A stretch of 64,000 nucleotides of DNA from an uncultured virus (IMG/VR IMGVR_UViG_3300010051_000002) (Duplodnaviria > Heunggongvirae > Uroviricota > Caudoviricetes), in IMG/VR virus record IMGVR_UViG_3300010051_000002, positions 1-64,000 of that record. One strand, 5' to 3'. The notes beneath the pieces were generated by a model. That model was not told where the DNA came from. It saw only the letters and a program-made list of their open reading frames with translations, and did no database searches. Made by a program: the position numbers and the translations under genes. This document shows positions 5,494 through 64,000 of the stretch, piece by piece; position 1 is the first letter of the stretch; each line of letters starts with the position of its first letter.

Positions 5494-14163
<8,670 letters not shown>

Positions 14164-14207: not shown

Positions 14208-17200
14208 TTGTCTGTTACTAGAGATCTATTAGCTCGAAGGTTACGAGCTCCACAGGAAAAAATGCTACATGATATTAATCAGATGTTAGCAGATCAGGCA
14301 GCAGAAAATATCAATGTAGTAACATCTAACTTAAAGGGTTATGCAATTAAACCAGCAACCACTACCAAATCAAGAGATAAGTATTATGCATATGTTAGAC
14401 CAATAACATCAGATAAAAATTATTACACTGGTAAATACCCCGATTATGATAATTGTAGGCTTTTTATACGGAGTGAAAATTTTGGTAAGGTTTTTGATTA
14501 TTCTCTTCAGGGTAATCAAGCAAAGGTATTATCTGATGTAATGATTCAGGAAGTACTAGTTCGTGAAGAAGAAAATAATATGCTTGGTGCAGAATTTGTT
14601 TCTTACTTTAATGGTAGTCATTGGATCAACGTTTCTGATGATAGAAAGATAAGCATTAAAGATATTATTGTTGATACCCCTGAAAAAGATGGTTTTTGTT
14701 TTGTTAAACGTTTTAATCCTCTTAGATATGGTAATTCTTCGGCTGATTCTATTGTATTAACACAAAAGACTGATACCAGCCAAAATAAATACGGTTATTC
14801 TCTTAATCTTGATGATAAAGGTAATCTTTTCTTTTATGTTGCTTTTAATTACAGGGTTTATCATGTTGTGTTAAAAGATGCATTTCAAATTAATTTGGGT
14901 AATGTAGATTTCTATTATCAGAACTTTAACCCCAAGAATTTCAAAACAGAAATTGATAGTGTAGAAGAATGGGCTAAAACAATGTATGATGTTGCTTGTT
15001 CATTTGACTTTACTACAAAAGAATGTAAAATAAGATTAAGATGGAAAGATAAAAATGGAGTTGAGCAACTTTTAACAGCATCATCAGTTAATTCTTTATC
15101 AACAAATTTACAGGTTAATCTACCACTTCAGGAAGGTAAATGGACAGAAACAGAAGATACCCCACTAAATGTTGTTTATGATTCTAAAAATAACTTTATT
15201 GTTCCAATAACTAACCCAACTTTAACAGGTACATGGCAAAATGATAATACTTTTAAAAATTCTAAAGCAGCAAGTGGTACTTACTTTTCTATTGCAAATC
15301 ATGCATTACTAAACGGTTTCACAGAATTTACGATTTCATTATGGGCTAAATTTGATAATCTTACTAATGATGGTTCATTTCGTTCTTTATTTAATAAAGG
15401 ATGGGGAGCTAATGGGGGGATTATTATCTATAGAGGTACCAACAGTGGTAATATATCGGTTGAATTTAGAACTGATGCAGGTACTAGACCGTCAGTAACT
15501 TTTACCAATGTAGTTCAAAGTCCTACTACATGGTATCATATTGTGGTTAGATGGAAATCAGGTGAGAATTTGAAAATGGCTATAAATGGAGTGGAATCTT
15601 TAAGCTCAATTACTGCTTCTGGTACAATTACAAGTAGTTCTAATTTAAGGGTACATGATGCTGTAACCGATGATATGACCATTGTTAATTTTATGATGTG
15701 GAATAGACAGATAACCCCAGCAGAAGTTGCAGACTTGTATTATTATGGACCGCATATGTCACAATTTCCAACAAATAAAGAACCGCAGCGTACCCCTTCT
15801 GGTTCACCAGCTCCTATTACAAACCCATTTGCAATACTTTATGATTTACCAAAAAAATCAGGTACACTTACATCAGCAGATTATACTTTTTTGAATAATC
15901 CAAGTGCAGCAAATCCTTTCGAGTCTAAATATAATATTGCTGCTGGTACTCCTGAAAATATTCCAAAAGTAACGCCTTACAACGTTCCTGATGGTGGTGG
16001 TACTATTGCAGATCCATATGTTTTGCAATCTGAGTTAACAACCAGTGATAATTCATATGTTCAACTTTCTAGTAATGACAACAGAGCTGGAGCTGTAGAA
16101 ATTACTAATACTGGTAGTGGTAGAGGTTTGGCATTATATAATAAAGCATTTACTAAAGTAGGATTTTGGTTTAAAAGAGTTACAAGCTCAATTGGAGGAA
16201 CTTTATATTGTAGAATATGGAATTCTTCTGATGCTGTTGTAGGAACGATAGGGTCAAAAACAAATCTTATTTCATTATTACCTACGACTGACTGGACCTA
16301 TTTAGAATTTGTAAATAATGCTAATACTTACAAACTAACAGGTAGTGGTTATAAAATTGGAATTGAATATGTTTGGGCTAGTAGTGGCGAACAAATCAAT
16401 ATGCAACGAAGTAATGAAAATCTTGATTCTACTATAGCGATGGCTTCGATGAATTACGGATCGAGTGATTTTAACACTGGTACTGGTAATGATGTAGCAT
16501 ATCGTGTTTATACTGGTCAAGGTACTGCTGCTGCAAATCCTTGGTACTCAATGAGTTATGGAAACTACAAACGATTTGCACAGTATATTGGTACAGGTGA
16601 TTCAATGATTGGGAAAGCTCCAAGTGAAGCAACATATAAAATGTATAGGGATTCAGGAACAATTTCAGGTAATCTTAGATGGAAAATTTGGAAGTCTAAC
16701 GGAACAATAATAACACTTGCTGCTGCTGCACTTGCTGTATCATCAATAACAACCACAACGACAGGTACAGTATACACTTTTCAAGATTTTGATAATCCAT
16801 ATACACTTGCTGCTGGTGATCGTTTGGGTATAGAATGGGAATCACAACCACTTAGTTCTGCGAAAGTGTACATAATGACCAACTATAACAACAATGCAGG
16901 ATCGAATAATTATAACGGTAATGCTTCATATTTCCATCTTTATCAATCATCATGGACTGGTGCAAACAGTCTTGATACAAGTGGCACATTAAGTTACGGT
17001 GGTTATTCATTTACCGCTATTTTTAAATTTACAAATACAGTTACAAGGGTAGGACAGAGAGCGGTAAATAACAGTGCATCATTTTGGAGTCAATTAATAA
17101 CAAGAGCAGTACCAAAAATAAAAAGAACGGGTACTATACCAGCTCCATCTACCATAACCTGTACCATAAGAAGGCAATCAGATAATGCTGTTCAAAAAAC

Positions 17201-18158
17201 AATAGGAACATTTGATGCTAATTCAATTTCAACTGCTACATTTGAAGATGTTCCGTTTACAAATATAGGTAGTGATTATATTATTGCGGTAGGTGATTAT
17301 ATCTGCTTTGAGCTAACAAGCTGTACTACAACACAGTATATTGAATTTGCAATTAACAAGGATGTAGGAACAAATACGTTATTAGTACAACATTCTTCTA
17401 ATGTAACTTCTGATGTAGCACAGTATGATCTGTCTGGTCAATTTTACATAGGTGGGCAAATAGATGCAACAAGTCGTACAAGGGTAGGGCAATATATCAA
17501 TACTCAAAATTCTTTGTTTATGACTACTGATGATAATAAGATAACCGTTTTAGAGGTACCGATGTATAAGCGAAATGCTCCAACAGGAATGATTTATTTT
17601 AACATCAGGGATGAAAATGATGTTGCAGTTAAAACATTAGGACAGATACCAGCATCAGGGTTATCTACCGATCCAGCTAATCCTACAATAGTGTATATTG
17701 AGGATCTCAATAATACTTACATTTTGGCAGCAAAGAATTTCATTTCAATTGAATTTGAAGGTGGGGATTCTGATGATCAGGTGGGAGTGCATACAAGAAC
17801 ATCAACATATGATGGTAACAATTCCTATCTTGCAAGATACAACGGTATTGATTATGATTATGATACTACAAAAAATCTAGTAGCATTGATAAAGACTGGT
17901 GGTAATACATACACTCCTGATCCAGCAGATTTACCCCCTGATATGCCACAGTCAGATACGGATCTTTACATTGGTATATCTGGTGATTTTGAAGGTGAAT
18001 ATACAATTGAGATTTTTGATCTCTTTGTATTTACAACTGAATTGTTAACCGATGATGAACTAGATAATTTTTACTTTACCAGAAATGATTTTGAAAGTAA
18101 TGCATGGGATGAAATACTTATTACTAATCATTCATTCATTAACGTTGAGGAATCTTAA
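14208..18158 (+). CDS. Large virion adhesin/tail-tip protein with LamG (concanavalin-like) domains and four beta-sandwich repeats
   Basis: LamG hallmarks 'FTISLWAKF...WYHIVVRW...MAINGVE...WNRQITPAEVADLY'; four ~150-aa repeats with 'RVGQ...I.IE'; directly follows TMP; TTG start. Confidence 0.75.
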   Translation: MSVTRDLLARRLRAPQEKMLHDINQMLADQAAENINVVTSNLKGYAIKPATTTKSRDKYYAYVRPITSDKNYYTGKYPDYDNCRLFIRSENFGKVFDYSLQGNQAKVLSDVMIQEVLVREEENNMLGAEFVSYFNGSHWINVSDDRKISIKDIIVDTPEKDGFCFVKRFNPLRYGNSSADSIVLTQKTDTSQNKYGYSLNLDDKGNLFFYVAFNYRVYHVVLKDAFQINLGNVDFYYQNFNPKNFKTEIDSVEEWAKTMYDVACSFDFTTKECKIRLRWKDKNGVEQLLTASSVNSLSTNLQVNLPLQEGKWTETEDTPLNVVYDSKNNFIVPITNPTLTGTWQNDNTFKNSKAASGTYFSIANHALLNGFTEFTISLWAKFDNLTNDGSFRSLFNKGWGANGGIIIYRGTNSGNISVEFRTDAGTRPSVTFTNVVQSPTTWYHIVVRWKSGENLKMAINGVESLSSITASGTITSSSNLRVHDAVTDDMTIVNFMMWNRQITPAEVADLYYYGPHMSQFPTNKEPQRTPSGSPAPITNPFAILYDLPKKSGTLTSADYTFLNNPSAANPFESKYNIAAGTPENIPKVTPYNVPDGGGTIADPYVLQSELTTSDNSYVQLSSNDNRAGAVEITNTGSGRGLALYNKAFTKVGFWFKRVTSSIGGTLYCRIWNSSDAVVGTIGSKTNLISLLPTTDWTYLEFVNNANTYKLTGSGYKIGIEYVWASSGEQINMQRSNENLDSTIAMASMNYGSSDFNTGTGNDVAYRVYTGQGTAAANPWYSMSYGNYKRFAQYIGTGDSMIGKAPSEATYKMYRDSGTISGNLRWKIWKSNGTIITLAAAALAVSSITTTTTGTVYTFQDFDNPYTLAAGDRLGIEWESQPLSSAKVYIMTNYNNNAGSNNYNGNASYFHLYQSSWTGANSLDTSGTLSYGGYSFTAIFKFTNTVTRVGQRAVNNSASFWSQLITRAVPKIKRTGTIPAPSTITCTIRRQSDNAVQKTIGTFDANSISTATFEDVPFTNIGSDYIIAVGDYICFELTSCTTTQYIEFAINKDVGTNTLLVQHSSNVTSDVAQYDLSGQFYIGGQIDATSRTRVGQYINTQNSLFMTTDDNKITVLEVPMYKRNAPTGMIYFNIRDENDVAVKTLGQIPASGLSTDPANPTIVYIEDLNNTYILAAKNFISIEFEGGDSDDQVGVHTRTSTYDGNNSYLARYNGIDYDYDTTKNLVALIKTGGNTYTPDPADLPPDMPQSDTDLYIGISGDFEGEYTIEIFDLFVFTTELLTDDELDNFYFTRNDFESNAWDEILITNHSFINVEES

Positions 18159-24756: not shown

Positions 24757-25605
24757 ATGGCAACAAAGCTGAAAAAAGTAATTAATCCTTTAGAAACAAG
24801 TGAAGAGCTTGTAGGTGCTGAATTTACAAATCAGTTAGTAGATTTATTACATGGAGTTTCTCTTGATGTTGATGAAAATGATTTAGCAGTTAATACTATA
24901 ATTCGATTCTGGAAAAATAAACTTGCGTTATTTGATATTAATCAAACTCATTTATTTTTATTTTCAACGGAAGAAATCAGTGATGAAGTAAATAAAACGA
25001 TCTTGTGGCGTGATATTACAGAAGGTAATACCGATTCACCAGTTTATGAAGTTGAACCTCAAATTCTTTTAAACAAAACATTAGGTGTTGATGGAATAGG
25101 CGGTACAAATTTAGGTGAAGATTTGGATGCTTTAGGGTTTACGGTTAACAATCTAGGTAAGTTAATGATGCATGATATGGGTGATCGAAACATCAACGTT
25201 TTGTATGCAAACGGTACAAATCCTAATACAGTATGGGATTTTATCAAAGGGTATAACACAGAAACATACGCTGCATTAAATTCTGCAACAGATATTAAAG
25301 TTAGATTTGGGTGGCAATCTGAAATAGATGTTTACGAATGGTGGAGTGAAACAACAGGATCAAATATTAAATTATTATCACTAGCTCCCACATTAGCAGA
25401 GTTTAACGTTACTGCCATAGATTTTAAAGATGCAACAATAAATAATTTCCAACAAAAACAAATTGAATTTTTGGATGTAACAAGCGAACCAGTTGGCACT
25501 TCAACAGTGGACTTTTTTTATAGAGAAGATATAGATGCAAATAATCACAGGGGTTATATTTCAAAGTTTGAAAACGGTGTACCGGTAAGGATCAGGGTTT
25601 ACTAA
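24757..25605 (+). CDS. Putative tail fibre/structural protein
   Basis: 'QILLNKTL' fibre-shaft-like motif shared with the next two ORFs. Confidence 0.5.
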   Translation: MATKLKKVINPLETSEELVGAEFTNQLVDLLHGVSLDVDENDLAVNTIIRFWKNKLALFDINQTHLFLFSTEEISDEVNKTILWRDITEGNTDSPVYEVEPQILLNKTLGVDGIGGTNLGEDLDALGFTVNNLGKLMMHDMGDRNINVLYANGTNPNTVWDFIKGYNTETYAALNSATDIKVRFGWQSEIDVYEWWSETTGSNIKLLSLAPTLAEFNVTAIDFKDATINNFQQKQIEFLDVTSEPVGTSTVDFFYREDIDANNHRGYISKFENGVPVRIRVY

Positions 25606-26477
25606 TGTCATTAAACACATATGCAGGATTATTAAAGCGTGGCAATGATGCAAGCAAACCAGATCCTACATATTGGTTAATTGGATTTTTATATCATGCT
25701 ATCGATACAGGTAATCTATACTATTATCAGGATTCAACAACTAGGGTACTTTTGCAAGGTGCAGAGAAAGCAGAGATCTTGAAAAATAAATCAATTAATT
25801 TTGCAGAAAATAATGTATCAGGTGTTATTAAAGATCCGTTTACCTCTATGAAACGAGAAGGTATTTTTGTACCTGCTGCAACTCATAATGCATCTTTTCA
25901 ACTTGCATTAAAAGGAGCTCCTTTAATCGGAACGTATACACTTGTTAAAGATGGTGCAGAAGGGTATGTTGGTAAATTTGAAGGTAATACATCAGGTAAA
26001 GCTGGTATTGTTTCAAATCCTACAACAAGTTTTGTAACAAGACGTGGTTATAATCCTAGAATAAAAGCAAGGTTTAAGGTACTTGATCCAGCAACGCAAA
26101 TTACCGTTTTTGGTTTTGCAAGTGCTTTACCTTTTGGTAGCGGTTCTGCTCTTGATAATAGTACCGCTGGTGCAATAATAGCACAAAGTACCGGAAGTGC
26201 TGTATATATAATACGTAATGGAATTGGTGATGGTGTTACTCCTGCTACAAATTTTAATACAACTACGAATAAAGCAACTGGTTATGCAAATTATGAAATT
26301 CAAATGGATGCAACTGAAATTAGATTTTATATAGATGGTGTTTTAGTTAGAACAGTAACTTCAAATTTACCTGCCTTAGATAGAGATATTTACCTTATTT
26401 TAGGACATGAAAGGAGTACCTTTGTACGAGATATTACTTTATCTAAAATGTATTTCAGTGATGATATACTACCATGA
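25605..26477 (+). CDS. Putative tail fibre with C-terminal lectin-like domain
   Basis: 'EILKNKSI' motif; 'YEIQMDATEIRFYIDGVLVRTVTSNLP' concanavalin-like end. Confidence 0.6.
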   Translation: MSLNTYAGLLKRGNDASKPDPTYWLIGFLYHAIDTGNLYYYQDSTTRVLLQGAEKAEILKNKSINFAENNVSGVIKDPFTSMKREGIFVPAATHNASFQLALKGAPLIGTYTLVKDGAEGYVGKFEGNTSGKAGIVSNPTTSFVTRRGYNPRIKARFKVLDPATQITVFGFASALPFGSGSALDNSTAGAIIAQSTGSAVYIIRNGIGDGVTPATNFNTTTNKATGYANYEIQMDATEIRFYIDGVLVRTVTSNLPALDRDIYLILGHERSTFVRDITLSKMYFSDDILP

Positions 26478-27259
26478 AACATTACATAAATAGAAAAACA
26501 GTAGAAAATAACGAACTTCTACCTTCTGCTGCATACTTGCAGGATTGGATCACACATGAGGTTGACACTGGTAATGTCTTTATGAGTAATGGTACAGTAA
26601 TTACAAAAGTACAGGGAGCAGATAAAACTGAAACATTAAAAAATAAACAACTTGAATTATTAGATAATAATTTTACAAACACAAATGGAATTATTGATAA
26701 TTCTTTTCTTTCTGATATGGAAATAAAAGGTGGGGTTGTACCAGCAACTACAATTTCAGATTCATTTTATGGTATTTTAGAAGATAATGCTGTTTTACAA
26801 AATCCAAATAAACCAGTTACAAATGCATTAAATCAAAATTTTGATAGTGTAGTTTTAGAATTTAGAACTGGTGATCCCGATGGAGTAATGGGTTTTGTTT
26901 CTCAGTACCCTTACTTTAGTCGTGAAATGGGTTTTGAAGTAAAATCTATTATTAAATCAGTATCAAGAAAATTGTATTATGGATTTTCAACAAGTAATGT
27001 TTTGGATTTAGATTCTGCATGTGTTTTTATTGGATTCGATCAAGATTCAACTCATTTTACAATTTACTCAAGCAATGGATTAAACAACAGAACAGAAGAA
27101 TTTACAATACCAAAAGATGTTTTTGAACATACAGTAGAAGTTATTTTAAGAACTGATTCAATTATTTGTAAGTTAGATGATGAAGAGATAACGTTAACTA
27201 CAATTAGAATACCTGCAATTACAGATCAATTATATCTTCACTGTTATGGTATAGTCTAA
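26474..27259 (+). CDS. Paralog of 25605 putative tail fibre
   Basis: 'HEVDTGN...VQGADKTETLKNK' matches 'HAIDTGN...LQGAEKAEILKNK'; similar C-terminal domain. Confidence 0.6.
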   Translation: MKHYINRKTVENNELLPSAAYLQDWITHEVDTGNVFMSNGTVITKVQGADKTETLKNKQLELLDNNFTNTNGIIDNSFLSDMEIKGGVVPATTISDSFYGILEDNAVLQNPNKPVTNALNQNFDSVVLEFRTGDPDGVMGFVSQYPYFSREMGFEVKSIIKSVSRKLYYGFSTSNVLDLDSACVFIGFDQDSTHFTIYSSNGLNNRTEEFTIPKDVFEHTVEVILRTDSIICKLDDEEITLTTIRIPAITDQLYLHCYGIV

Positions 27260-34849: not shown

Positions 34850-36238
34850 ATGTCAATGTCCATTGATAAAAGAAGCGATGGTACGCGTTTCAACTGGACA
34901 GGCTTAGGTAGTCGTTACGCTAGTTGTGAAATGATACTTTACGTTAGACATCCTTGTGGATCGTTTGGGGATGAGGTATCAGGCAAAATGGGCGGTGGAA
35001 AACATAGCTCGGGATCCAGACCGCGTTGCTATGATATAGGTGTAGATTCTGACAATGGCAACACTAGGTTAAGGGTTGAAGATAAACATCCCGAATATGA
35101 TACTGTTTCAAGTAATCGTGGTGATGCTCCTAATCAGGGAGTAGGATTAGGTGGTAATTGGATTGGTTACTGTTTCATAAAAAGAAACATGAACGGTTAT
35201 GTTCTTTTACAGGTATGGCAGGATGCAGGAAATAATAACGGTTCTACTCCTGCTAATGCTTGGAAATTAATTGGATCATGGAATTGTTCTAACCCATACT
35301 GGCCTAATCCACCAAGTGATCATCAAGAAACAGTACGTATTGATAATGTGGATTGTTTAGAACATAAATGGGGATCGTTACGTGAAATTACTGGTAACGC
35401 TTCCACAACTCCAGGTACAGGTGGAGTTGGTGGCGGTACAACTGGTGGTGGAACAATTGGAGGTGGTACTATTGGTGGCGGTACAACTGGCGGTGGGCAA
35501 GTGCCAGGCGGACAGATACCAGGCGGTGGATCGTGGGGTACAGGTGGAACAGGTGGAGTTGGAGGATCAACAGGTGGTGGTATTGGTAGTGGTGATGGTA
35601 GTGGAGGTACCGGTACTGGTGTAGATACTCCAAATCCTGCCGAGAGTACCGTACTTTATGAACGAAAAGAATACTGGATTCGGTACAACATTAATTTTAT
35701 TTCAGGTGATGCATGTGGTGTTGGTAAGAATCCTCAAACATCACCACTTGTTGCAGTGTATAAGGTACAGGGTGATGTGTATGTTGAAGGTAAAAATTAC
35801 AGTCGTGTTGGTATTCATATTGCTAAAGAAAATAAAGACAATCCTGCTGAAACTTCAAGGTTTATTGGATTACCACCTATAATGGCAATGACACTTGTTT
35901 TAAGACGGGCAGGTACTAACTCTATGAGTGGCAATATTAACATAAGAATTAGAGATAAAAATTATAGTATTGTAGCAGAACTTGGAACAATTGCGATCAC
36001 AGCAGTACAGGCTAATGATCTATCATTTCCTTTATCATTTCCAAATAACCTTAGAGATCTAAAAGTGGGTGATCATCTTTCAATAGAATATGATGGAAAT
36101 AACCAGACAGATTACCTTAGAGTAAAGGTTAATCAGTTTGAAAAATTTGATGGTGCATTGACAAGGATGTTTGTATATGATGGTAATGCATACATCTATG
36201 ATGATTTTGCCGATCTAGCTGCCGAGATAAGTGTATAG
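34850..36238 (+). CDS. Modular adhesin: jelly-roll domain, Gly-rich linker and one copy of the 14208 repeat domain
   Basis: 'GGGKH...HPEY...WIGYCFIKR...WQD...RIDN'; C-term 'SRVGIHI...RIRD...GDHLSIEY...DLAA'. Confidence 0.65.
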   Translation: MSMSIDKRSDGTRFNWTGLGSRYASCEMILYVRHPCGSFGDEVSGKMGGGKHSSGSRPRCYDIGVDSDNGNTRLRVEDKHPEYDTVSSNRGDAPNQGVGLGGNWIGYCFIKRNMNGYVLLQVWQDAGNNNGSTPANAWKLIGSWNCSNPYWPNPPSDHQETVRIDNVDCLEHKWGSLREITGNASTTPGTGGVGGGTTGGGTIGGGTIGGGTTGGGQVPGGQIPGGGSWGTGGTGGVGGSTGGGIGSGDGSGGTGTGVDTPNPAESTVLYERKEYWIRYNINFISGDACGVGKNPQTSPLVAVYKVQGDVYVEGKNYSRVGIHIAKENKDNPAETSRFIGLPPIMAMTLVLRRAGTNSMSGNINIRIRDKNYSIVAELGTIAITAVQANDLSFPLSFPNNLRDLKVGDHLSIEYDGNNQTDYLRVKVNQFEKFDGALTRMFVYDGNAYIYDDFADLAAEISV

Positions 36239-48714: not shown

Positions 48715-49731
48715 ATGTCTGCACAAACTGCACAAGACAACCAAATAGAAAAAGAAATTACTATTGGAGGTATCGTTTATGTTTTAAAAGGAAAAGTTGA
48801 CATTACTATAACTCCTAAAGAAACACAACCTGTACCGCCAACTCCACCAGTAGATCCTGCTAAACCAGAACCAACTAAACCAGATAGTTTTGGAACAATA
48901 AAGGATGGTGCTTCATGGTCTAAGAATCCAGGTAAAGCAGAAACTTGGAAGATAGTTAACATGAATAAACCACCAGAGAAATTCAAAATTATTGCTACTG
49001 ACGGTTTGAACGTTATTGCTGATTTAGAATCTAAAGAACAGGCACAGGGGTTAATTGACTATTTCAAGGTTAACGTATTTCCACCTAAAGGAAATGATAA
49101 TAGTACTCCTGTCGATCCAGAAGAACCACCTAAACCACCAGTAGTTGTTGATGGTGAATTACCATATAAGACAACAGGGAAAACTGTGGAAATGTCACAA
49201 CGTGGACCAACAAAAAGAAACTATGCAAGTGGTAAACCTTCAGATTGGACTATAGAAAAGAACGCAAAGAAGATAACATTCTCTAAGATTATGGCAGTGT
49301 TTACAATTGCAGTACCTACCGAATGGGAGCATGATGATAACTTATCAATCAAACTAGGCGGTACGCATATGGGAAGCGGTTGGTTTGACAATGGTATATC
49401 AATCTATGAAGGGCAAACCTGCTTAGGAACAGAAAAGAAGCATCCAAGTACAAAACTATGTGTAGTAAAGGGTAAAGCATTTGGTGATCTTAGAGGTAAA
49501 ACAGTTTCAGTATGTTCAACCTATTTCAAAGATACAAATAGCACTGAATTTTGGGTAAATATACCAGGTGTAACTAAAGGATGGGAAAAGGGATGTGAAG
49601 GTACAAATGTTGGTGGATTTAACCCTAATGCAGGAAATGAAACAGAGGTACAACTAAGAATAGATGGGTTCAAAGAAAAGGATCAACCACCAGACATACA
49701 GAAATTTGCTGTGATGGAAATCCAGCAATAA
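48715..49731 (+). CDS. Modular protein: one TMP-extension repeat plus jelly-roll domain, Pro-rich linkers
   Basis: 'ETWKIVNMNKPPEKFKII..DGLNVIADLESKEQAQGLIDY'; 'SIKLGGTH...EKKHP...LRIDG'. Confidence 0.7.
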   Translation: MSAQTAQDNQIEKEITIGGIVYVLKGKVDITITPKETQPVPPTPPVDPAKPEPTKPDSFGTIKDGASWSKNPGKAETWKIVNMNKPPEKFKIIATDGLNVIADLESKEQAQGLIDYFKVNVFPPKGNDNSTPVDPEEPPKPPVVVDGELPYKTTGKTVEMSQRGPTKRNYASGKPSDWTIEKNAKKITFSKIMAVFTIAVPTEWEHDDNLSIKLGGTHMGSGWFDNGISIYEGQTCLGTEKKHPSTKLCVVKGKAFGDLRGKTVSVCSTYFKDTNSTEFWVNIPGVTKGWEKGCEGTNVGGFNPNAGNETEVQLRIDGFKEKDQPPDIQKFAVMEIQQ

Positions 49732-49747: not shown

Positions 49748-50008
49748 ATGTCAGAACAGAAACAAAAATTTTGTTGTACGTTTTTTGAACAAAGTGTAAA
49801 ATTAGGTGAAATAATAACAAAGGAAGAATTATTTAGTAATATTAATGATATAGAATTCTTAAGAATACATCCAAAGTATGTTATCAGATCTGAAAGTGGC
49901 AAATATTTAGGGTTTAATTTTTGTAGTAATTGTGGTTTTAAATATTCAACTGATGAACAGATAGAATACTGGAATAAAATATACAAAATAAAAAATAAAG
50001 ATCCTTAG
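49748..50008 (+). CDS. Small CC...CxxC zinc-binding protein
   Basis: FCC...FCSNCG; same pattern as 58227 and 62654. Confidence 0.6.
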   Translation: MSEQKQKFCCTFFEQSVKLGEIITKEELFSNINDIEFLRIHPKYVIRSESGKYLGFNFCSNCGFKYSTDEQIEYWNKIYKIKNKDP

Positions 50009-50124
50009 ATCTTTTTTAATAGATTTCTCATTTGAGAGCTGTTAGGTGTTGCTGCAAAAGGTTTACCTAAAGGCATGGTACCTGCATTTCTAATTGTTGT
50101 TTTAATTCCAGTTGTTGTTGCCAT
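50005..50124 (-). CDS. Small basic protein (39 aa)
   Basis: Read by eye: MATTTGIKTTIRNAGTMPLGKPFAATPNSSQMRNLLKKI. Confidence 0.45.
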   Translation of the reverse strand: MATTTGIKTTIRNAGTMPLGKPFAATPNSSQMRNLLKKI

Positions 50125-50177
50125 TATCTTATCTTAAGATAATTAATATTTAAATAATACTCAATATATAATATAGT

Positions 50178-50348
50178 TGGGTCTTCGGACCCATTGTTTT
50201 AAAAGAATTTTTATATATTATCTTTTATAATAACATTTGATTAGAAAGTTTTACAGACTTCTTTCTAATCTACTCTCAGCATCTAGAACCTAAAACAGCA
50301 GCTCTTTTCTATCAGGGTAGGTTTTATTGTGTTTCCCCTACCCTGATA
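50178..50348 (+). ncRNA. Candidate structured non-coding RNA or cis-element (three hairpins)
   Basis: TGGGTC-TTCG-GACCCA (50178-50193); GATTAGAAAG..CTTTCTAATC (50239-50270); TATCAGGGTAGG..CCTACCCTGATA (50310-50348). Confidence 0.4.
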
Positions 50349-53387: not shown

Positions 53388-54338
53388 TTACATGCCAAAA
53401 GCATGCTGATAAAAGATTTTAAGCCATTCTTTGTTTATTATCTTGATTGTGAATTTACAATTTCCACAGGTTAGATATAGATGCACGTTAAGGTTTTCAT
53501 TTCTTGGGTATGTTGATACGGTACCATTCTGATTATCTATCAATTCTTTTGTACTTACCGTATGTTTGTGCCTTAGCTGTTCAATTAAATACTGGTCTAT
53601 AGATTTTGTACGACAGCTTGGGCATACGATATACTTCATTATTTCGATTGCATCCCTAAGCATACTATTATATAAGTATAACTTGCTTTAAAACGTTCTA
53701 GTGTTTTTTAGAATTTGGGTATTTATGAGTTACGGTATTATATAAGATTAACTTAGGCTAATCTATCATAGATTATTTTATCAACTGCTAGATCAAATTC
53801 TATTAATTCTCTATGCCATTCATTATTGTATAAATTTTCATCAGCAGTATGTATAAAATAAAATTCCATTTTAACCCTGCATCTAGGGCAGTTTATATCA
53901 TAGATCATTTTTCTAATTCTTTTTTTATTACTTCTGCTTCATTTTCTACAAAATTTATTAAATCTTTACAAAGAGCATTTTCTTCCTGTAAAATTTCCTT
54001 AGCTTTAGGGTTGAGATAGGCATATCTACTTTCATGTATGAATTCATGATTAATTTTTTTATATATTGATAATGCCCTAACTATTAATTCTAATGCTGGA
54101 GCTGTTTGTTCATTTAGACCAAATGGCATATAGTACTTTTTATTTTCTTTATCAATTATTCTATGGCTCATTTTGATAACTCTTTTAAATGTGATATAAT
54201 CATTTTTATTTCCTTAATTCTCTTTTCATGGTATTTTAAATCATTTTCATAGACTTCTAAAGCGTATATTGTAAATGCATTTGGAGTTTTTAAGCTTAGT
54301 ATATTTAATACTTCATCACTTGGTATATCATCACTCAT
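53388..54338 (-). other. Leftward cluster of small ORFs (53388-53663, ~53753-53908, 53905-54171, 54168-54338)
   Basis: ORF track plus two short ORFs read by eye; CxxC motifs in two. Confidence 0.6.
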
Positions 54339-54453: not shown

Positions 54454-57162
54454 ATGAGTAAATTAATAACAACCAAAAAAATAAACGACACAATAGAAAA
54501 GATCGAAAAAAGACTAAGAAAAGTTGAAACAAAACCATTTCAGGTGATATATGACAAAGAATTATCTAGCTACATCATAAAGACAACAAACAAGGTAATT
54601 CATCCTGCACTTGTAGGTTCATTTCTTCAGGGACTGAACTTATGGATCGGTTCGGTAATAGTCAATGATGCAGGATTTTTAAACCTAGAATTAAAGGAGT
54701 GTTAAAAAAATGGGTGAAGATCTATATACAAAAAAACAGCTTGATGATCTTTCTCAAGATCTCAAAGAAATCAACGTTGAACATTACCCTGAAGTCTTTG
54801 ATATTGATGATTTTACATTAGGTCATTATCAGAAGGTAGAGCTTGCCAAAATATTAAACACAATAGATCCAATGCTAACAAATCAAGATATGGTGTTTAT
54901 TTTTATCAGTGTCAACAATACAACAAGCCTTACAAAAATGGTAAACTACCTGGTTGAAAAATTACGAATACATGAGAATTACAGGCTGATCGATTACAAG
55001 TTTAACAGTGTAATGACTACATCAGAAGCGTATGATAATTTTGATTTCAGCGTAAGCCTACAATTTAAGAGTACGGTTTAAAATGTCTTTTTCTTTATCA
55101 TGCGAAAAGTGCGGTACAAATCCTGAAACATTTCATAATTATAAAGATCAAATCTTATGTCCTTCCTGTTTTAAAAAAGAACTGAAGAAACACAACAAAG
55201 CGATCAAATGTGCCAAGTGTGGCAAAAAAACAATGTATTATACCAAATGGTACGGTAAGGAAGTCTGTATAAAATGTGATATGATTGCAAGACAGCTTAG
55301 AACAATAAGATACAACGGTAATAAAATACTCAAAGGTATTATGCAAGATATATATGCATTGGAGCAAAAAAAATAATGCCATTTGTAGAAGTTATAATTG
55401 AATGTTCAAATTGCGATAATAAAAAGAAAATAGAAATTGCTCAATCTACTTCTTATATTTCTGTTCCAATTGAGGATTTCACCGTTAATTGCTGCAAGTG
55501 TGATATTCAGGGTTGTGAAAACTGTACGTTAATAGATATTGAAGATAATACTTACTGTCAGGATTGTTATTTTAAATACGTGCAAAAAGGATTAATCACA
55601 AAAAAGCTAGGAGTAGAATAAGAAAAGAATGAAACTGTATTTTGAACTATCAATTGCATGTGAAAAATGCGATAAAAAAGTAATAACGATAAAAGATAAC
55701 AATGCTTATTCTATTCACGAAAAATTCACATTGGTTTGTGATCCTTGTGCTTTGAAATTAAAGCAAGAAAAACAAAAACAAAATGAAAAACCAAAACCAA
55801 AGGAAGGGGTACAATATATCATAATGGATGAATCGCATGGTAGGCATAGCTGTGAATATTCTGAAAATGGTGTTGACTGTATGACCAAAGCGACACACTG
55901 GATTACAGAACTATCAACTTATTCATGCCAGCAACACTTTGATAAATGGGCTAAAGGATGGGTACCTGAATAAAAATGGTAGGATCACCCGATAGACCGT
56001 TTAAAAGAATCAAAAGGGTAAAAGGTAACTATAAAGAATTTGATTCTTTAAGCCAAATGATAAGTAAAAGAATACGACAAATGTACGGTGATAACAGGGA
56101 AAAAATACTATTTGATAATCCTGTTATAATACTGAAAGATAAGGAAGAAATTACAAAGATGCAGGAATTTGAAAAATACATTGAGAATTTTCTTAGATGT
56201 GCCAATTGTATGAAGCAACCAGTAATGGAACATGTAGGATCTGATTCAACTAATCTTGTATTCACATGCCAAACATGTTTCTGTACCACAACAGACAGTA
56301 CCAAAGAAGCACAGGAATTTGTAAAATGGTTTAACAATGTGTTATCTAGATTCTCATGCGAATTTACCAAAATGCCAAATTACATAGTAGGGGAAACAAA
56401 AGAAGAAAACGGTGGTGGTTGGTTTCATGAATGGTGCAGCAATGAATACACTGGTGATTACGAAATAAGGGTACCAAAGANNAATTCAGATCAAACGTTT
56501 AGAAAAGAAAGATTAGAACAATTAGAAGAATTTAACAGAGCTATTAATGAAATGAATCAAAGACTAAGAAATATTGAATCAAAAATTGATGATGTAAGAC
56601 AACAAGCATTATTTTCTGTTGCTCCACAAATAAAAGAATTACAAGATAATAAATTAACTCTTATCAATCGAGTGCAGCAATTAAGAGATGAAAAAGAAAA
56701 TTACTATCAAAATACATGCGGTCATTTAGAATATAATGATGGTACAGTGCATCTGTGTTTATGGTGTGGTAAGGATTTATGAATAAAGAAAAACAGGGAT
56801 CAATAGATTTTAAGAAAGATGATAGAAGAGGATGGGATTTTAGACCAGTAGATATTGATGCAGAAATTAATGGCTACTTTGCATATGATGATCCTCTTCC
56901 TGATGAATGTAGTGGTAAATTAGGTGGTGATAAAAAGATAGGATTTAGAAGTTGTTATTCACTTAGCAGGGGATGTAAATATGATGATGAAAAAGATCCG
57001 TTATGTACGCATTATGCCAATAATCTAACTGGATGCTGCACATATCACAGATACAAATACAACGAGCTTTTGCAGGGTGAAAAGATAAGTGATTTTGTTA
57101 TTCAAAAAATAAATGAAAGAGGTGGAAAGATTGAAAAAGAAAAATTGCAAGAATGGAAATAA
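54454..57162 (+). other. Rightward operon of small hypothetical, mostly Cys-rich ORFs (54454, 54710, 55083, 55376, 55629, 55976, 56779)
   Basis: Tightly packed; multiple CxxC motifs; NN gap at 56481-56482 inside 55976. Confidence 0.65.
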
Positions 57163-57943
57163 AGATCTTTACAATAAAGACATAAACATTAACATCAATA
57201 CTAAATCATTTGATAAACTAAGTTTAGCATTATCAAAAATGAAAGAAGGTGTAGATGAATCATTAAAGAAAAGTGCAGATATGATAATTGAAGAAGCAAG
57301 AAAGAAAGTACCGTATGTGCCAACAGGATCGCTTAATTATCTTAATACTCCATTTCCATTTGTTCCTTCAGATCTTGGTATCGATGATGATTATGATCAT
57401 TTATCATTTAGTCCTACTGCATGGATTAACAATACAAGTTTTGATATGATGTTTGAAGAAGCAAAAAGAAAACATGAAGCAGGTGAACCTATAGGTGAAT
57501 TCTTTCCTTTCGTTCCTTCTGACTTACCTAGCGAACAATTAGAAGAATGGAATCCTGTTGGTGTAGTTACAGATTGGAAAATAGATATACCTGAAGAAAA
57601 GAAAAAACAAAAATTTCCAAAATTAGGTGAATCTAGAAGTCTAGAAGTAAATTACACAATAGAAGATCCTGATTTCTGTCAATGGTTGCAAGATATAGCA
57701 AGAAGTAATGAAACTATACCATTAAACCCTGAGGATGATCCAAGATTACCCAAAAACTTATTTCCAAATAAAAAAGGAATTCAATGGGTTATTGATGATT
57801 TAGTACCTGAAGATACCATACTTTGTTTTGATAAACGTAATGTTATATTTGGAGTAGATAAAGATGGAAAGGAATATGTAAAATTAAGAAACAAAAAGAA
57901 TTTTAAGAAGATCTCATTAAAAAAAGAGGAAAACAAAAAATGA
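57113..57943 (+). CDS. Mosaic protein of virion-protein-like fragments
   Basis: aa ~25-74 resemble the gp10-like 5074 protein; aa 146-158 resemble the tail tube; FPFVPSDL occurs twice. Confidence 0.65.
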   Translation: MKEVERLKKKNCKNGNKDLYNKDINININTKSFDKLSLALSKMKEGVDESLKKSADMIIEEARKKVPYVPTGSLNYLNTPFPFVPSDLGIDDDYDHLSFSPTAWINNTSFDMMFEEAKRKHEAGEPIGEFFPFVPSDLPSEQLEEWNPVGVVTDWKIDIPEEKKKQKFPKLGESRSLEVNYTIEDPDFCQWLQDIARSNETIPLNPEDDPRLPKNLFPNKKGIQWVIDDLVPEDTILCFDKRNVIFGVDKDGKEYVKLRNKKNFKKISLKKEENKK

Positions 57944-58227
57944 ATGAATCACAACAGGGAGCGTTAGCAGTTATAGGAATTATCATAACCATAATTGTAG
58001 CAGCAGTATTAACGGTCCATATTTTAACTCCAACAGAAATACAACAAGAAGAAGTAGCAAATCAAAATGAAACAATACAAAAAGTAGGTGGGGGTCAAAC
58101 AGTAGAAACAAATCCATTTAACAATGAAACAAACAATACTACCACTGCTACTACTGCCGATAATAATTCAATAGTAATCGATGATCTGAATTTAAACGTG
58201 AGTAATGCAACTGGACTAGGTGTATAA
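57940..58227 (+). CDS. Single-pass membrane protein with N/T-rich ectodomain
   Basis: N-terminal TM; several N-x-T/S sequons. Confidence 0.65.
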   Translation: MNESQQGALAVIGIIITIIVAAVLTVHILTPTEIQQEEVANQNETIQKVGGGQTVETNPFNNETNNTTTATTADNNSIVIDDLNLNVSNATGLGV

Positions 58228-58469
58228 TGAAAATACATTTTGTTAAAAATGCATGGGGTCATTGTATGCCAGTTTATTTTGATAAATGCTGTGATGCAAT
58301 GACATTAAAATATAGTCCAGAAACAAAACCATTCAATGGTTATTGGATGAATCCATACGATCAAATCTTATTTATTATTGAAAATGGTGAAATAAATGGT
58401 GTTGTTAAAAATTGTCCATTTTGTGATGCAAAGATAGAATTAATCCAGCGAGAGTTGAAAAGTTTATGA
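58227..58469 (+). CDS. Small CC...CPFC zinc-binding protein
   Basis: KCCDAM...NCPFCDAK. Confidence 0.6.
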   Translation: MKIHFVKNAWGHCMPVYFDKCCDAMTLKYSPETKPFNGYWMNPYDQILFIIENGEINGVVKNCPFCDAKIELIQRELKSL

Positions 58470-58825
58470 ATGATTTTAATTTAAACGAATTCAACAAACT
58501 TATCAAAGATATTTCTATCAAGATAAGATTCGCTGATGATCAAGATCTAATATTTGATGTTGCCAATAATAAAACATTCTATTCACCTGAAGTTGGTATA
58601 AGAGTAGACAAACCTGGAGTCAACCTAGAGTTTTCACATCCAATAAACAATAAACCTGTTGAGAATGTATCAAAATCAAAAAATTTGATAGTTCAAGGGT
58701 TTAATCTCAGTAATAATAACCTTAAACTCTATGCGTATAACCATGATGCTAAAGAATTCTATGATATAGAAATGACAGAAAGCACATTCAGATCTATCAA
58801 AGAAGCCTTCAAGATGATAAAATGA
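58466..58825 (+). CDS. Hypothetical protein (119 aa)
   Basis: ORF track; translational coupling. Confidence 0.6.
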   Translation: MNDFNLNEFNKLIKDISIKIRFADDQDLIFDVANNKTFYSPEVGIRVDKPGVNLEFSHPINNKPVENVSKSKNLIVQGFNLSNNNLKLYAYNHDAKEFYDIEMTESTFRSIKEAFKMIK

Positions 58826-59298
58826 CAGTTAATAATGAAGTAAAAGAAGTAGAATATACAAACGAACTATATCACAAGGCAGTAATCTTTGCAATCAACA
58901 GACATAAAGGACAGAAAAGAATGGATGGTAAAACAGAATTTATAACACATCCACTTGCGGTTGCTAAAAGTTTACAGTGGTTAGATGAAAAGATAGTTGC
59001 TGTTTTACATGACACAATAGAAGATACACATACAACCTATCAAGATATTGAGGTTTTATTTGGTACTCGTGTGGCAAAAGCAGTAATGTTATTAACAAAA
59101 CCAAAAGATGTTTTCTATGAAAGATATATTGGTGATTTAAGAAAATCCAGAAATAAACTTGCCATTGCTGTTAAAATTGCAGATATAAAACACAATCTAA
59201 GCAGTGCTGAAGGTATTCCTGATCCTGATAAAAGAGCTAGATTAATAGAGAAATGGAAAAAAGCATTAAAGATCTTAGAATGGGAAGTAGTAGTATAG
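58822..59298 (+). CDS. HD-domain hydrolase, RelA/SpoT (Mesh1/small alarmone hydrolase)-like
   Basis: 'HKGQKRMDG..FITHPLAVA...AVLHDTIEDT...V..LTK...VKIADIKHNL'. Confidence 0.9.
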   Translation: MTVNNEVKEVEYTNELYHKAVIFAINRHKGQKRMDGKTEFITHPLAVAKSLQWLDEKIVAVLHDTIEDTHTTYQDIEVLFGTRVAKAVMLLTKPKDVFYERYIGDLRKSRNKLAIAVKIADIKHNLSSAEGIPDPDKRARLIEKWKKALKILEWEVVV

Positions 59299-59299
59299 T

Positions 59300-60370
59300 A
59301 TGAGTGCAATTAAACAGATAAAGATTTTAGAATTCAAGGAAATAACAAACTGTGTTAGATGTTCATCAGATAATATTATAAAACTAACCAATTACAAAAG
59401 AGTTGAAGATCTCAAGAATAATAGTTTCAACAAGGGTACCGATGTAAGTATACGCTGCAAAGATTGTCACTGTCTGGTGCATTATAAAGAATGATCATCT
59501 GTTTTTGGTGTAATGGTGAATCAACTACGAAAGGTAAACCTATTGGTAGAGATTCAGATAATTTACTAATATGCAAACCATGTTCAACTATTGATAGAAA
59601 AACACGTTATCATCTTAGAAGAATGGCTAGAGAATTACCTTTTATATTAGATAAATTATTTCCAAATTATCAGAGGTTAAATAAATAAAATGAAACAATC
59701 AAGTGAGTTTAGATAATAATGATTGAAATATTAATATCAAAAGGTCAGATTATCTGGTTTGTTGGTGTTATCTTTGTTATTATAGCCTTTATATATTTTA
59801 GAAATTATTTCACTCAATACTGGTATGGTACTGTAAGTGTAGAAACAAAAGATAAAATAATTGGTATTATATTATTGGCATTTGGTTTGCTTATGATATT
59901 TTTGGGAATAAACTATGAATATAAAATAGTGGAGTTTAAGGTTATCTGATATATATGGATGGTTGGGAATGGGCTACAGTAATAGGAATATCAGTAATAT
60001 TTGGTGCAGCAATTTTAGTTATAATATTCTATGAACTACCAAAATCAACAGATCAAAAATGTGCAGAATTATCTACAATAATGGAGCATAATAACACTAT
60101 TGTTACGTTTAAGGAAAAGTGTGCAGTTTATTATACAAATGAAAAAAACTATTCTTTCTTAGATTTTGATAATCCCAGCTTTGGTCCAAACTCTTACACG
60201 TTGGTGAAAAAGAAATGACACTATCAGATTGTAGTTTATACGGTCATAATCTGGAAGCAGATCCAGAACACGAACCAATACAAGAAGGTGATATAATACA
60301 TCTTCATGTAAGATGTAAAAGATGCAACCATAAGATGTTATTACATATGAATGAAAAAAATAGTTTATAA
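59300..60370 (+). other. Small ORFs: two Zn fingers (59300, 59491), two membrane proteins (59719, 59955), CxxxGH...CKRC protein (60215-60370)
   Basis: ORF track plus one ORF read by eye. Confidence 0.6.
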
Positions 60371-61113: not shown

Positions 61114-61554
61114 TCATTCTTTTTTACAATCCTTTGTTAAATCATCTAATACTTCTTTTGCCTGTTTTGCGTCTAGATTGTAAGGGTTATCTAATCTTAT
61201 TGTATACATGTGATCGTATTCATCCGTACAACGTATGTGTATTTCACCTGATTTTGGATCAATATACGGATCAGAATGTGTTGGTTTACTTTTAATGTGT
61301 ACGTTCTTTCTTTCTTCTTCGGGAATTGCCAGGTATTCCTCTAAACTATCAACCCATCTTGGTCTAATGTAATCTGGTTCTTTGAATGACATTATACGTT
61401 TCCAAGTATTACCTTTTTTATCTGGTATTCCATCATCTTGCCATAGTTCTTTTATTATTTTACCATTCTTTGATCTTTTAATAAAAGAATAACCAATAAA
61501 ATTACGTGATGGTTTAAGTTCTTTGTTCATTTGTGATTTTCCTTCTTCGGGCAT
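61114..61554 (-). CDS. Truncated paralog of the jelly-roll adhesin domain (C-terminal half only)
   Basis: 'FIGYSFIKRSKNGKIIKELWQDDG...NTWK...TIRLDN' vs 34850 'WIGYCFIKRNMNGYVLLQVWQDAG...NAWK...TVRIDN'. Confidence 0.7.
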   Translation of the reverse strand: MPEEGKSQMNKELKPSRNFIGYSFIKRSKNGKIIKELWQDDGIPDKKGNTWKRIMSFKEPDYIRPRWVDSLEEYLAIPEEERKNVHIKSKPTHSDPYIDPKSGEIHIRCTDEYDHMYTIRLDNPYNLDAKQAKEVLDDLTKDCKKE

Positions 61555-63127: not shown

Positions 63128-63310
63128 TTAAAATCCAATTTTGTTATCTTCCACATATTTTATGATCTCTTCCTTATGATTCTCAAACATCATATTGATT
63201 ATTCTTTGAATGAACTTGGATCGTGGAATATCACCACGTAGTTTATCAATTTCATCCAGTCTTTTCATATCAATCGATAAACCAATTCCTGTTTTTGATA
63301 GTCTGCTCAT
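63128..63310 (-). CDS. Ribbon-helix-helix transcription regulator
   Basis: 'GIGLSIDMKRLDEIDKLRGDIPRSKFIQRII'. Confidence 0.8.
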   Translation of the reverse strand: MSRLSKTGIGLSIDMKRLDEIDKLRGDIPRSKFIQRIINMMFENHKEEIIKYVEDNKIGF

Positions 63311-64000
63311 ATCATTCCATTCCGTTTATTTTCTTGGTTAATACCAGCATTTTATTTTCCAAATTCTGCATTNNTAAGTTGAATATTCTGTAAATGCAAT
63401 CTTGCTTCAACGGTTGCTTTTGTATTAAATGCTCTTAACATTTCAAGCTCCCTTTTGGTTACAGGAAGATTATATTCTGTTTCTGTCATTGTGGCATTGG
63501 TCCTGAATAACCACGTTCTATCTCACCATACTTTGATTCATCATATTCACCACTACCTTCTTCTATAATGCGATTCAAAACATCCTGTTTTTCCTTGATA
63601 AGATTCAGCTCTTCCTGTGACCATTCTGTTTTTCCTTCACTTTTTTCTTTAGTCACTCCTTCATCTATTTTTCGCAATTCAATCATTGCTTTCAGTCTGT
63701 TAATAACTACCATATCAATCACTTATTTGCTGAATTGTTTTTTATAGAACAACTTTTCTAAAACGGATTTAGTAAGGTATACCCTATAATTTCCAACTTG
63801 AAGCATTGTGTAGTTGTTATGATAACCAATTCGTCTAATTGTTTCATTCTTGATTGCAAGATCCGTTGGTTTGATTTTCATAAAATTGGCTTTGGATTCT
63901 TCTATTCCTTCTGCTATTACTGCTGGTTTTGTTTTTAGGTTCGCTTTCATTTTTATTATAACCTTGCAAGATTATTGATGTCTGCATTTAATAAGGTTTT

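Follow-up and report, generated by a model that had tools for sequence, protein, structure and literature searches.

The window analysed here covers the initial 64 kb of a contig of 90,406 bp from an uncultured virus (IMG/VR record IMGVR_UViG_3300010051_000002; G+C 33%), and the gene in question is an open reading frame (ORF) at 57113-57943. Our comparisons show its predicted product to be a mosaic in which parts of three virion proteins are present as ancient paralogous copies. These are a gp10-like N-terminal half with an additional duplicate of its helix end, the strand region at the N-terminus of the tail tube protein, and three core beta-strands from near the C-terminus of the HK97-fold major capsid protein, followed by a lysine-rich tail. 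Chance is excluded as an explanation of the capsid link and is unlikely for the tube and gp10 links. A preliminary description of this DNA had proposed a chimera stitched from virion-like pieces. The likeness to neck, tube and capsid proteins held up. The stitching is old, and the copies are pieces of folds and not whole domains: the aligned stretches comprise about 26-36 residues each.

The similarities were studied with two alignments. Alignment A2 contains the ORF product (P0001) and its five homologues P0002-P0006. Alignment A4 contains the capsid protein of the virus and 17 full-length homologues; P0026, a capsid fragment of 264 amino acids (aa), was left out. Matches are given with their expectation values (E).

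The capsid-like C-terminal module

The capsid gene had been expected outside the window and was located there, further along the contig (Table 1). When the C-terminal segment of the ORF product was aligned with the capsid protein of the same virus, as the preliminary description had suggested, BLASTP matched aa 218-247 with capsid aa 348-377 (E 2e-6; 11/30 residues identical, 20/30 similar). The segment that had been regarded as the weakest of the three similarities thus turned out to be the strongest, both by BLASTP and by the comparison of the ORF family with the capsid family in hhalign (92.4% probability, E 5.2e-7, 36 columns).

All six family members matched the capsid protein (E 2.8e-5 to 0.045). 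It was the best non-family match for five of them and the second best for P0005. With the whole-family profile, which was run against 292 genome ORFs of at least 50 aa, the best non-self match was again the capsid protein (E 1.6e-6), the next being the gp10-like neck protein (E 0.0034). The relation is reciprocal: a C-module profile matched 19/19 capsid-family sequences at the homologous place, and a profile of the capsid C-terminus matched 6/6 members of the ORF family. In both families the residues W, V, D and D of the motif WV.DDL are fully or almost invariant. One of the six members, P0006, also matched phrog_1650, the PHROG of an unrelated major head protein, with its C module (E 0.026).

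That this protein of 420 aa is the major capsid protein was recognised through the protein atlas only. There it reached a feature score of 0.97 to clusters with Phage_capsid_4 in a minority (16-23%), and template modelling (TM) scores of 0.50-0.57 to Phage_capsid family models. Its own AlphaFold2 model, computed from 18 sequences, is poor (predicted local distance difference test, pLDDT, 46.3). Foldseek with this model gave no match at E <= 0.001, and the ten best matches were all phage capsid or virion entries. A Pfam scan of the 18 capsid homologues found no capsid family, and the best hit of a solved-structure sequence search with the capsid family was calreticulin (E 0.14). The 36 aligned columns span a strand-turn-strand-strand unit close to the C-terminus, which presumably belongs to the A/P-domain sheet of the HK97 fold, a placement based on the HK97 structure and on the poor model.

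The tube-like and neck-like segments

BLASTP aligned aa 146-191 of the ORF product with aa 32-86 of the tail tube protein (E 2e-4). The core of this similarity, ORF aa 145-170 in the region of WNPVGVVTDWKID, shares the motif W..VG..TDW.(I/V)D with tube aa 31-56, which lie N-terminal to the part of the tube protein aligned by Pfam (aa 96-296). A middle profile made from P0001 and P0005 found tube aa 31-56 with E 3.2e-4; singly the two sequences gave 0.048 and 0.34. A similarity of the middle segment to the 2889-aa presumed tail protein (Smith-Waterman score 59-61) did not hold, since the profile made from the repeat domain of that protein missed both the family and the tube (E > 5). The middle piece of P0005 also matched the product of 26474-27259 weakly (E 0.004), for which a profile gave no confirmation.

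At the N-terminus, aa 39-74 of the ORF product align with aa 19-53 of the 114-aa gp10-like neck protein. The profile phrog_5 was matched by two of the six family members, P0001 (E 0.01) and P0005 (E 0.023), in both cases at profile positions 91-142. For the ORF this covers 52 of the 239 profile positions, and it overlaps the match of the virus's own gp10-like protein to the same profile (positions 100-190). Together with the phrog_1650 match of P0006, these matches are a weak agreement of outside libraries with the mosaic.

In whole-protein Smith-Waterman comparisons with the 52 further ORFs of the window that encode 100 aa or more, the gp10-like protein ranked first (z 6.8) and the tail tube second (z 5.2). 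When the segments were taken separately, the z-scores were 6.7 for the N-terminal segment against the gp10-like protein, 8.5 for the middle against the tube and 9.5 for the C-terminal segment against the capsid protein, each of them reached by 0/1000 shuffles. The six cross-pairs of the three segments gave z-scores of -1.8 to 1.5.

Single-sequence phmmer searches were of little help. Their values for the tube (E 0.048) and for gp10 (E 0.21) are at the noise level of a genome all-against-all search, in which many unrelated pairs were found at E 0.001-0.05. As single-sequence values in this range are therefore uninformative, one profile per module was searched against all 291 further ORFs of the genome with 50 aa or more, with 200 shuffled databases as the null. 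The N module profile scored 16.2 bits with the gp10-like protein (next real ORF 7.8, null maximum 12.5), the middle profile 15.0 bits with the tail tube (next 4.7, null maximum 13.6) and the C module profile 25.9 bits with the capsid protein (next 6.1, null maximum 11.6). The runner-up was thus 8-20 bits lower in each case and none of the 200 shuffled databases reached any real module score, so that the three similarities withstood the shuffled controls by which the preliminary description had proposed to judge them. The module borders were chosen after the first matches had been seen, which introduces a mild circularity; the unsegmented searches agree with these results.

Structure of the gene

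The positions of the gene, of its modules and of the virion protein genes are compiled in Table 1. The motifs quoted in the preliminary description were all found at the residues given there: VDES...TGSL at aa 47-74, DMIIEEARKK at aa 56-65, FPFVPSDL at aa 81-88 and again at aa 131-138, DMMFEEAKRK at aa 111-120, WNPVGVVTDWKID at aa 146-158, KLGE at aa 170-173 and GIQW...FDK at aa 222-241. The internal duplication that had been claimed is equally real. The two copies, aa 54-88 and aa 109-138, align with a Smith-Waterman score of 58 (z 9.5), which none of 1000 shuffles reached.

Table 1. Positions of the ORF, its modules and the virion protein genes discussed in the text (window coordinates unless stated otherwise).
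Feature	Position	Strand	Remarks
ORF, P0001	57113-57943	+	open frame, 276 aa from ATG 57113
N module, aa 18-80	57164-57352	+	LYNKDINININT, helices, then EA(K/R)KK..P; common to 6/6 members
Allelic cassette	57235-57355 (joint 57234-57356)	+	121 nt swapped for 130 unlike letters in the relative
Repeat copy 1, aa 54-88	57272-57376	+	SADMIIEEARKK...FPFVPSDL
Repeat copy 2, aa 109-138	57437-57526	+	SFDMMFEEAKRK...FPFVPSDL; second copy of gp10-like helix end and linker
Tube-like middle segment, aa 145-191	57545-57685	+	versus tail tube aa 31-86
Capsid-like C module core, aa 214-248	57752-57856	+	KNLFPNKKGIQWVIDDLVPEDTILCFDKRNVIFGV; versus major capsid protein aa 343-378
Lysine-rich C-terminal tail, aa 257-276	57881-57940	+	basic in 6/6 members
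Tail tube protein, 306 aa	3090-4010	+	PF18906, E 6.7e-7 (Pfam aligns aa 96-296)
gp10-like neck / tail-completion protein, 114 aa	5074-5418	-	PF04883, E 5.6e-7; phrog_5, E 2e-12
2889-aa protein	5494-14163	+	presumed tail protein by position
462-aa protein	34850-36238	+	putative tail-region protein
Major capsid protein, 420 aa	contig 88337-89599 (L002:9337-10599), outside the window		no Pfam or PHROG match

The frame is open throughout and the ORF overlaps co-directional ORFs by 4 nucleotides (nt), as had been described for an intact gene coupled to its neighbours. The start in use is probably TTG 57131, which would give a product of 270 aa, because this TTG lies 5 nt past AGAGGTGG (57118-57125) and because a close relative of the virus has ATA in place of ATG 57113 (57115 G>A in run X2). 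The homologue P0002 begins at the corresponding TTG. One low-depth contig, from run X1, has a joint that skips 56819-57886; with only 21 letters on one side, this joint was not counted.

The protein family

An exhaustive search of 1.84 billion representatives yielded six proteins at E <= 0.001. One of them, P0007 (725 aa, E 9.7e-4), was dropped, its match running through a charged tandem repeat; the remaining five were kept and make up, with the ORF product itself, a family of six. In the alignment the family members are 36-91% identical to the ORF product. P0002, from a 90.7-kb contig, shares 88-89% identity with it in pairwise comparison, and P0003-P0006 share 36-45% in the alignment.

The N module (LYNKDINI..., helices, EAKK..P) is common to all six members. 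So is the C module, which reads PLNPE.DPRLPK...WVIDDLIPED.ILVFDK..V.F.KD.DTGKEY and is followed by the lysine-rich tail. The middle varies between the members, gaining and losing pieces. The tube-like piece is present in the ORF product, P0002 and P0005, partial in P0004 and absent from P0003 and P0006. P0003 has Cys-rich (CxxC) stretches in the middle and in the C-terminal tail, and P0006 has no middle.

The family appears to be small. A profile search of a set of 5.8 billion proteins gave no further member, and phage records contained no relative of the ORF or of the capsid protein. Nothing in a viral contig collection matched the ORF or its family profile, nor the capsid protein or its profile, and a collection of species genomes contained no match to either of the two profiles. 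Among metagenome contigs the sole relative was one close relative (L003).

The mosaic was not stitched recently, as is shown by the existence of a six-member family with conserved N and C modules and by a DNA identity of 52-63% to the source genes. A single full-length family, which the preliminary description had named as a finding that would refute the chimera, does exist; the similarities to virion proteins nevertheless stay, and the family profiles match these proteins better than the single sequence does. The ORF is a real, conserved accessory gene under constraint in a small group of tailed viruses.

Age of the copies and the allelic cassette

The copied pieces must be old, because the DNA identity to their virion source genes is only 52-63%. 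This rules out a recent gene conversion from the virion genes.

The contig of the close relative is 81-97% identical to the window genome over aligned blocks. Within the ORF a short cassette that spans the gp10-like helix is exchanged between the two viruses, and the remainder of the gene is ~99% identical. Of the codon differences, 28 non-synonymous and 4 synonymous ones fall in the 42 codons of the cassette, as compared to 1 non-synonymous and 4 synonymous ones in the other 228 codons. The allele found in the window resembles that of P0003. The gp10 gene is identical over aa 1-96 in both viruses and so is the tube protein. Therefore the cassette alleles do not track the originals.

Comparison with the relative also revealed other sharp islands, at about 49760-50300, 53780-53930, 61160-61280 and 63290-63410, and at 64870-65030 of the contig. 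In these the identity drops to 45-75%, as against 93-97% in the surrounding DNA, which points to frequent short-patch recombination.

Fold and family membership

The AlphaFold2 model of the ORF product, made from the six-sequence alignment, has a pLDDT of 42.3; only aa ~220-270 reach 60-78, with five strands. An exhaustive structure comparison with this model gave nothing above Z 3.9, all of it on generic helices. The best hit of a solved-structure sequence search with the ORF family had E 0.36, and in the atlas the best feature score of the ORF was 0.78, which is below lead level; clusters of gp10-like proteins and of capsid fragments among its matches are no more than suggestive.

The ORF product is a member of none of the three families but has partial homology to each. 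With the gp10-like neck proteins (PF04883, PHROG 5) its N module shares a strand, two helices and, in the window allele, a P..TG.L turn; the helix followed by this turn we take to be the hallmark of that family. In contrast to these proteins the ORF product has only about 35-50 like residues, lacks the C-terminal beta part and carries the helix end in duplicate. The N-terminal helical half and the turn are thus present, and a match to the full-length model is not. With the tail tube proteins (PF18906) it has a short N-terminal piece in common, confined to tube aa 31-56 (to 86 in BLASTP). It lacks the tube fold, and the PF18906 model gave no Pfam match to the ORF. With the HK97-fold capsid proteins it shares 36 aligned columns that include capsid-family-invariant residues, and here homology of the C-terminal strand unit was found. 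Unlike a capsid protein it has no N-arm, E-loop or spine helix, nor the remainder of the A and P domains. The complete fold was not recovered, the homology being limited to the 36 columns and the model being poor; the ORF product cannot form the HK97 fold.

Genomic context

The virus is a tailed virus with archaeal-type replication genes. Apart from the proteins in Table 1 the window encodes an MCM helicase, an Hjc-type resolvase, a large terminase and a MuF-like head protein; a family-B DNA polymerase and a primase large subunit are encoded past its end. The tail genes occupy ~1-20 kb, terminase, portal and MuF 37.7-43 kb, and the capsid gene lies at 88.3 kb. Hence the structural genes are split into two blocks, with the capsid gene ~46 kb from portal, terminase and MuF. 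If the contig is circular, the capsid gene would lie just ahead of the tail genes. The tail, packaging and capsid genes are all distant from the ORF, which belongs to a densely packed run of small non-structural genes with the look of an operon.

In this run, at a distance of three genes downstream, 58822-59298 (+) encodes an HD-domain phosphohydrolase (PF13328 HD_4, E 1.7e-8; phrog_990, E 3.6e-39). Many of the small neighbouring ORFs (55083-56782 and 58227-59688) contain paired, zinc-ribbon-like CxxC motifs, and several of them are weakly alike among themselves. Short runs of N occur at 56480-56482 and 63372-63374. The first of these lies within ORF 55976-56782. At this place contigs of the source run break or insert CAA, and the contig of the relative has 228 different letters between 56480 and 56483. 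It is a variable or hard-to-assemble spot.

Several other proteins of the window share parts. In the 2889-aa protein a domain of ~70-90 aa is repeated four times near the C-terminus (aa 2202-2666), with Gly/Thr/Ser-rich linkers between the copies. The same domain occurs once (aa 50-140, E 1.2e-14) in the 338-aa product of ORF 48715-49731 (+), and no family could be assigned to it. The neighbouring paralogues 25605-26477 and 26474-27259 (both +) have their N-terminal ~80 aa in common (E about 1e-10), and the product of the former has a weak match to glycosyl hydrolase 16. A second accessory ORF, 61114-61554 (-), encodes 146 aa, of which aa 16-58 match aa 101-145 of the 462-aa putative tail-region protein (E 6e-7). 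Residues 299-460 of the latter resemble aa 1068-1228 of a 1316-aa protein (E about 1e-5), whose gene (14208-18158) lies directly downstream of that of the 2889-aa protein. Pieces of putative virion proteins may thus recur among the accessory genes of this virus.

Possible function of the ORF product

The copied pieces are fold slices in which core or interface-like residues of the originals are kept. With a confidence that falls slightly short of even, we favour the view that the ORF product is a competitive mimic of virion-protein interfaces. Made from the run of small non-structural genes, such a mimic would offer its copied pieces to the usual binders of the originals, and the fold slices on display would compete for whatever binds these. 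The binders could be capsid, tube or neck subunits that are not yet assembled, or the partners of these in assembly. By this, head and tail assembly could be held back, timed or poisoned, be it that of the own virus or that of a co-infecting relative. Alternatively, they could be host proteins that sense virion proteins, for which the ORF product would then be a decoy. The assembly target is slightly and only tentatively preferred, because the copies are short fold pieces that keep capsid-invariant residues and not whole domains, and because the sensors known so far recognise, to our knowledge, folded surfaces. A decoy for host sensors comes only a little behind it, and each of the two targets taken alone is rather unlikely. 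The run of small ORFs with its 4-nt overlaps, the variable middle of the protein, the cassette and the precedent of DSAD1 (see below) are taken here as hints of a role in conflict or competition.

A number of observations weigh against the mosaic or against its reading as a mimic. The gp10 link is the weakest of the three: BLASTP of the ORF against the gp10-like protein did not find the alignment, PF04883 (HK97-gp10_like) gave no match to the ORF with E values up to 10, and similarities between helices readily come out too high when compared with shuffled nulls. The profile behind the tube link was made from just two distinct sequences, and the tube-like piece, missing from P0003 and P0006, is inessential to the family. 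All aligned stretches are short. The idea that the cassette co-varies with gp10 had to be rejected, gp10 aa 1-96 being the same in both viruses. Nor is the cassette unique, as about seven or eight further divergent islands occur in the compared 21 kb. The basic tail, like the Cys-rich stretches in P0003, would fit nucleic-acid binding without any mimicry as well, and the step from the copied pieces to mimicry is inferred only.

Some of these observations would be expected if the virus had simply re-used building blocks, that is, if the pieces had been captured long ago as folding units of a protein with an unrelated function, e. g. a nucleic-acid-binding regulator. This is the main rival; it is possible, albeit not likely. 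The age of the copies would fit, as would the lysine-rich tail of all members, the CxxC motifs in the middle and C-terminus of P0003, the Cys-rich small ORFs next to the gene and the dispensability of the tube-like piece in 2/6 members. Re-use of fragments may even be common here, since ORF 61114-61554 shares its 43-aa piece with the putative tail-region protein. Yet three pieces of three virion proteins in one product of 276 aa are much for neutral re-use, and a 36-residue slice of the HK97 fold is no autonomous domain. Moreover, the most conserved C-module residues of the family (W, V, D and D) are just the capsid-invariant positions, and both cassette alleles retain the likeness to the gp10 helix, though through different residues.

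The pieces could also serve to dock a minor virion or assembly component, for example of the head-tail junction, on the lattices that they resemble. They are of the interface type and are shared with exactly those proteins that meet at or near this junction, and the family is conserved. The gene is, however, far from both structural blocks and stands among small non-structural ORFs, and a variable middle and a swapped cassette would be unusual for a lattice component, so that we consider this explanation improbable. Least of all do we believe in chance or a composition artefact of an AT-rich proteome rich in lysine and aspartate, which is extremely improbable for the mosaic as a whole. It is true that the single-sequence phmmer values for tube and gp10 are no better than those of dozens of pairs in the all-against-all search, and that the Smith-Waterman match to the 2889-aa protein proved unsupported by a profile. 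Against this stand the module scores, which no shuffled database reached and which exceed the best of 290 other real ORFs by 8-20 bits, the hhalign result for the capsid with its reciprocal matches in both families, and the improvement of the tube match (E 0.048 to 3.2e-4) by an independent family member.

Relation to known systems

It is well known that hosts have defence systems with sensors for capsid, portal, terminase or tail-tube proteins. The Gol peptide of the T4 capsid protein is reportedly sensed by the Lit protease, a case in which a capsid slice of ~30 residues is the recognised unit. Unlike the ORF product, Gol is part of the capsid protein itself; it triggers the defence, and there is no separate mimic gene.

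The nearest working model for a decoy role of the ORF product is DSAD1. This non-structural protein of SPbeta-like phages, an inhibitor of the DSR2 defence, occupies the pocket in which DSR2 otherwise binds the tail tube protein and is described by the authors as mimicking the tube protein (PMC10973363). DSAD1 differs in being one protein directed at one target in a bacterial host, and the ORF product is likened to it by description; the passages of that paper on which this comparison draws contain no statement of sequence copying from the tube (PMC10973363). In exact-word searches of the literature we found no accessory gene of a virus that combines sequence copies of several virion proteins, and DSAD1 was the sole case of a viral answer by copying the sensed proteins. 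The conserved patchwork suggests a kind of molecular mimic that has not been described before.

A wider hypothesis would be that tailed viruses of archaea and bacteria keep accessory "virion-part mimics", made from copies of interfaces, which act as multi-target decoys or as poisons of the assembly of rivals. As a general rule this is rather doubtful at present. It lends itself to a screen for accessory ORFs with segments that match the virus's own structural proteins above shuffled controls, which could reveal a hidden gene class.

The ORF is a concrete, clonable candidate for virion-protein mimicry, and may just as well be a regulator or poison of head and tail assembly that the virus encodes. 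The viruses concerned form a very little studied group with archaeal-type replication genes. Even if the function of the ORF should turn out to be unrelated, it is a record of how a gene arose from pieces of structural genes. If the wider hypothesis is true, it would be the first virion-part mimic of an archaeal virus, with three copied parts and an exchangeable cassette at one of them.

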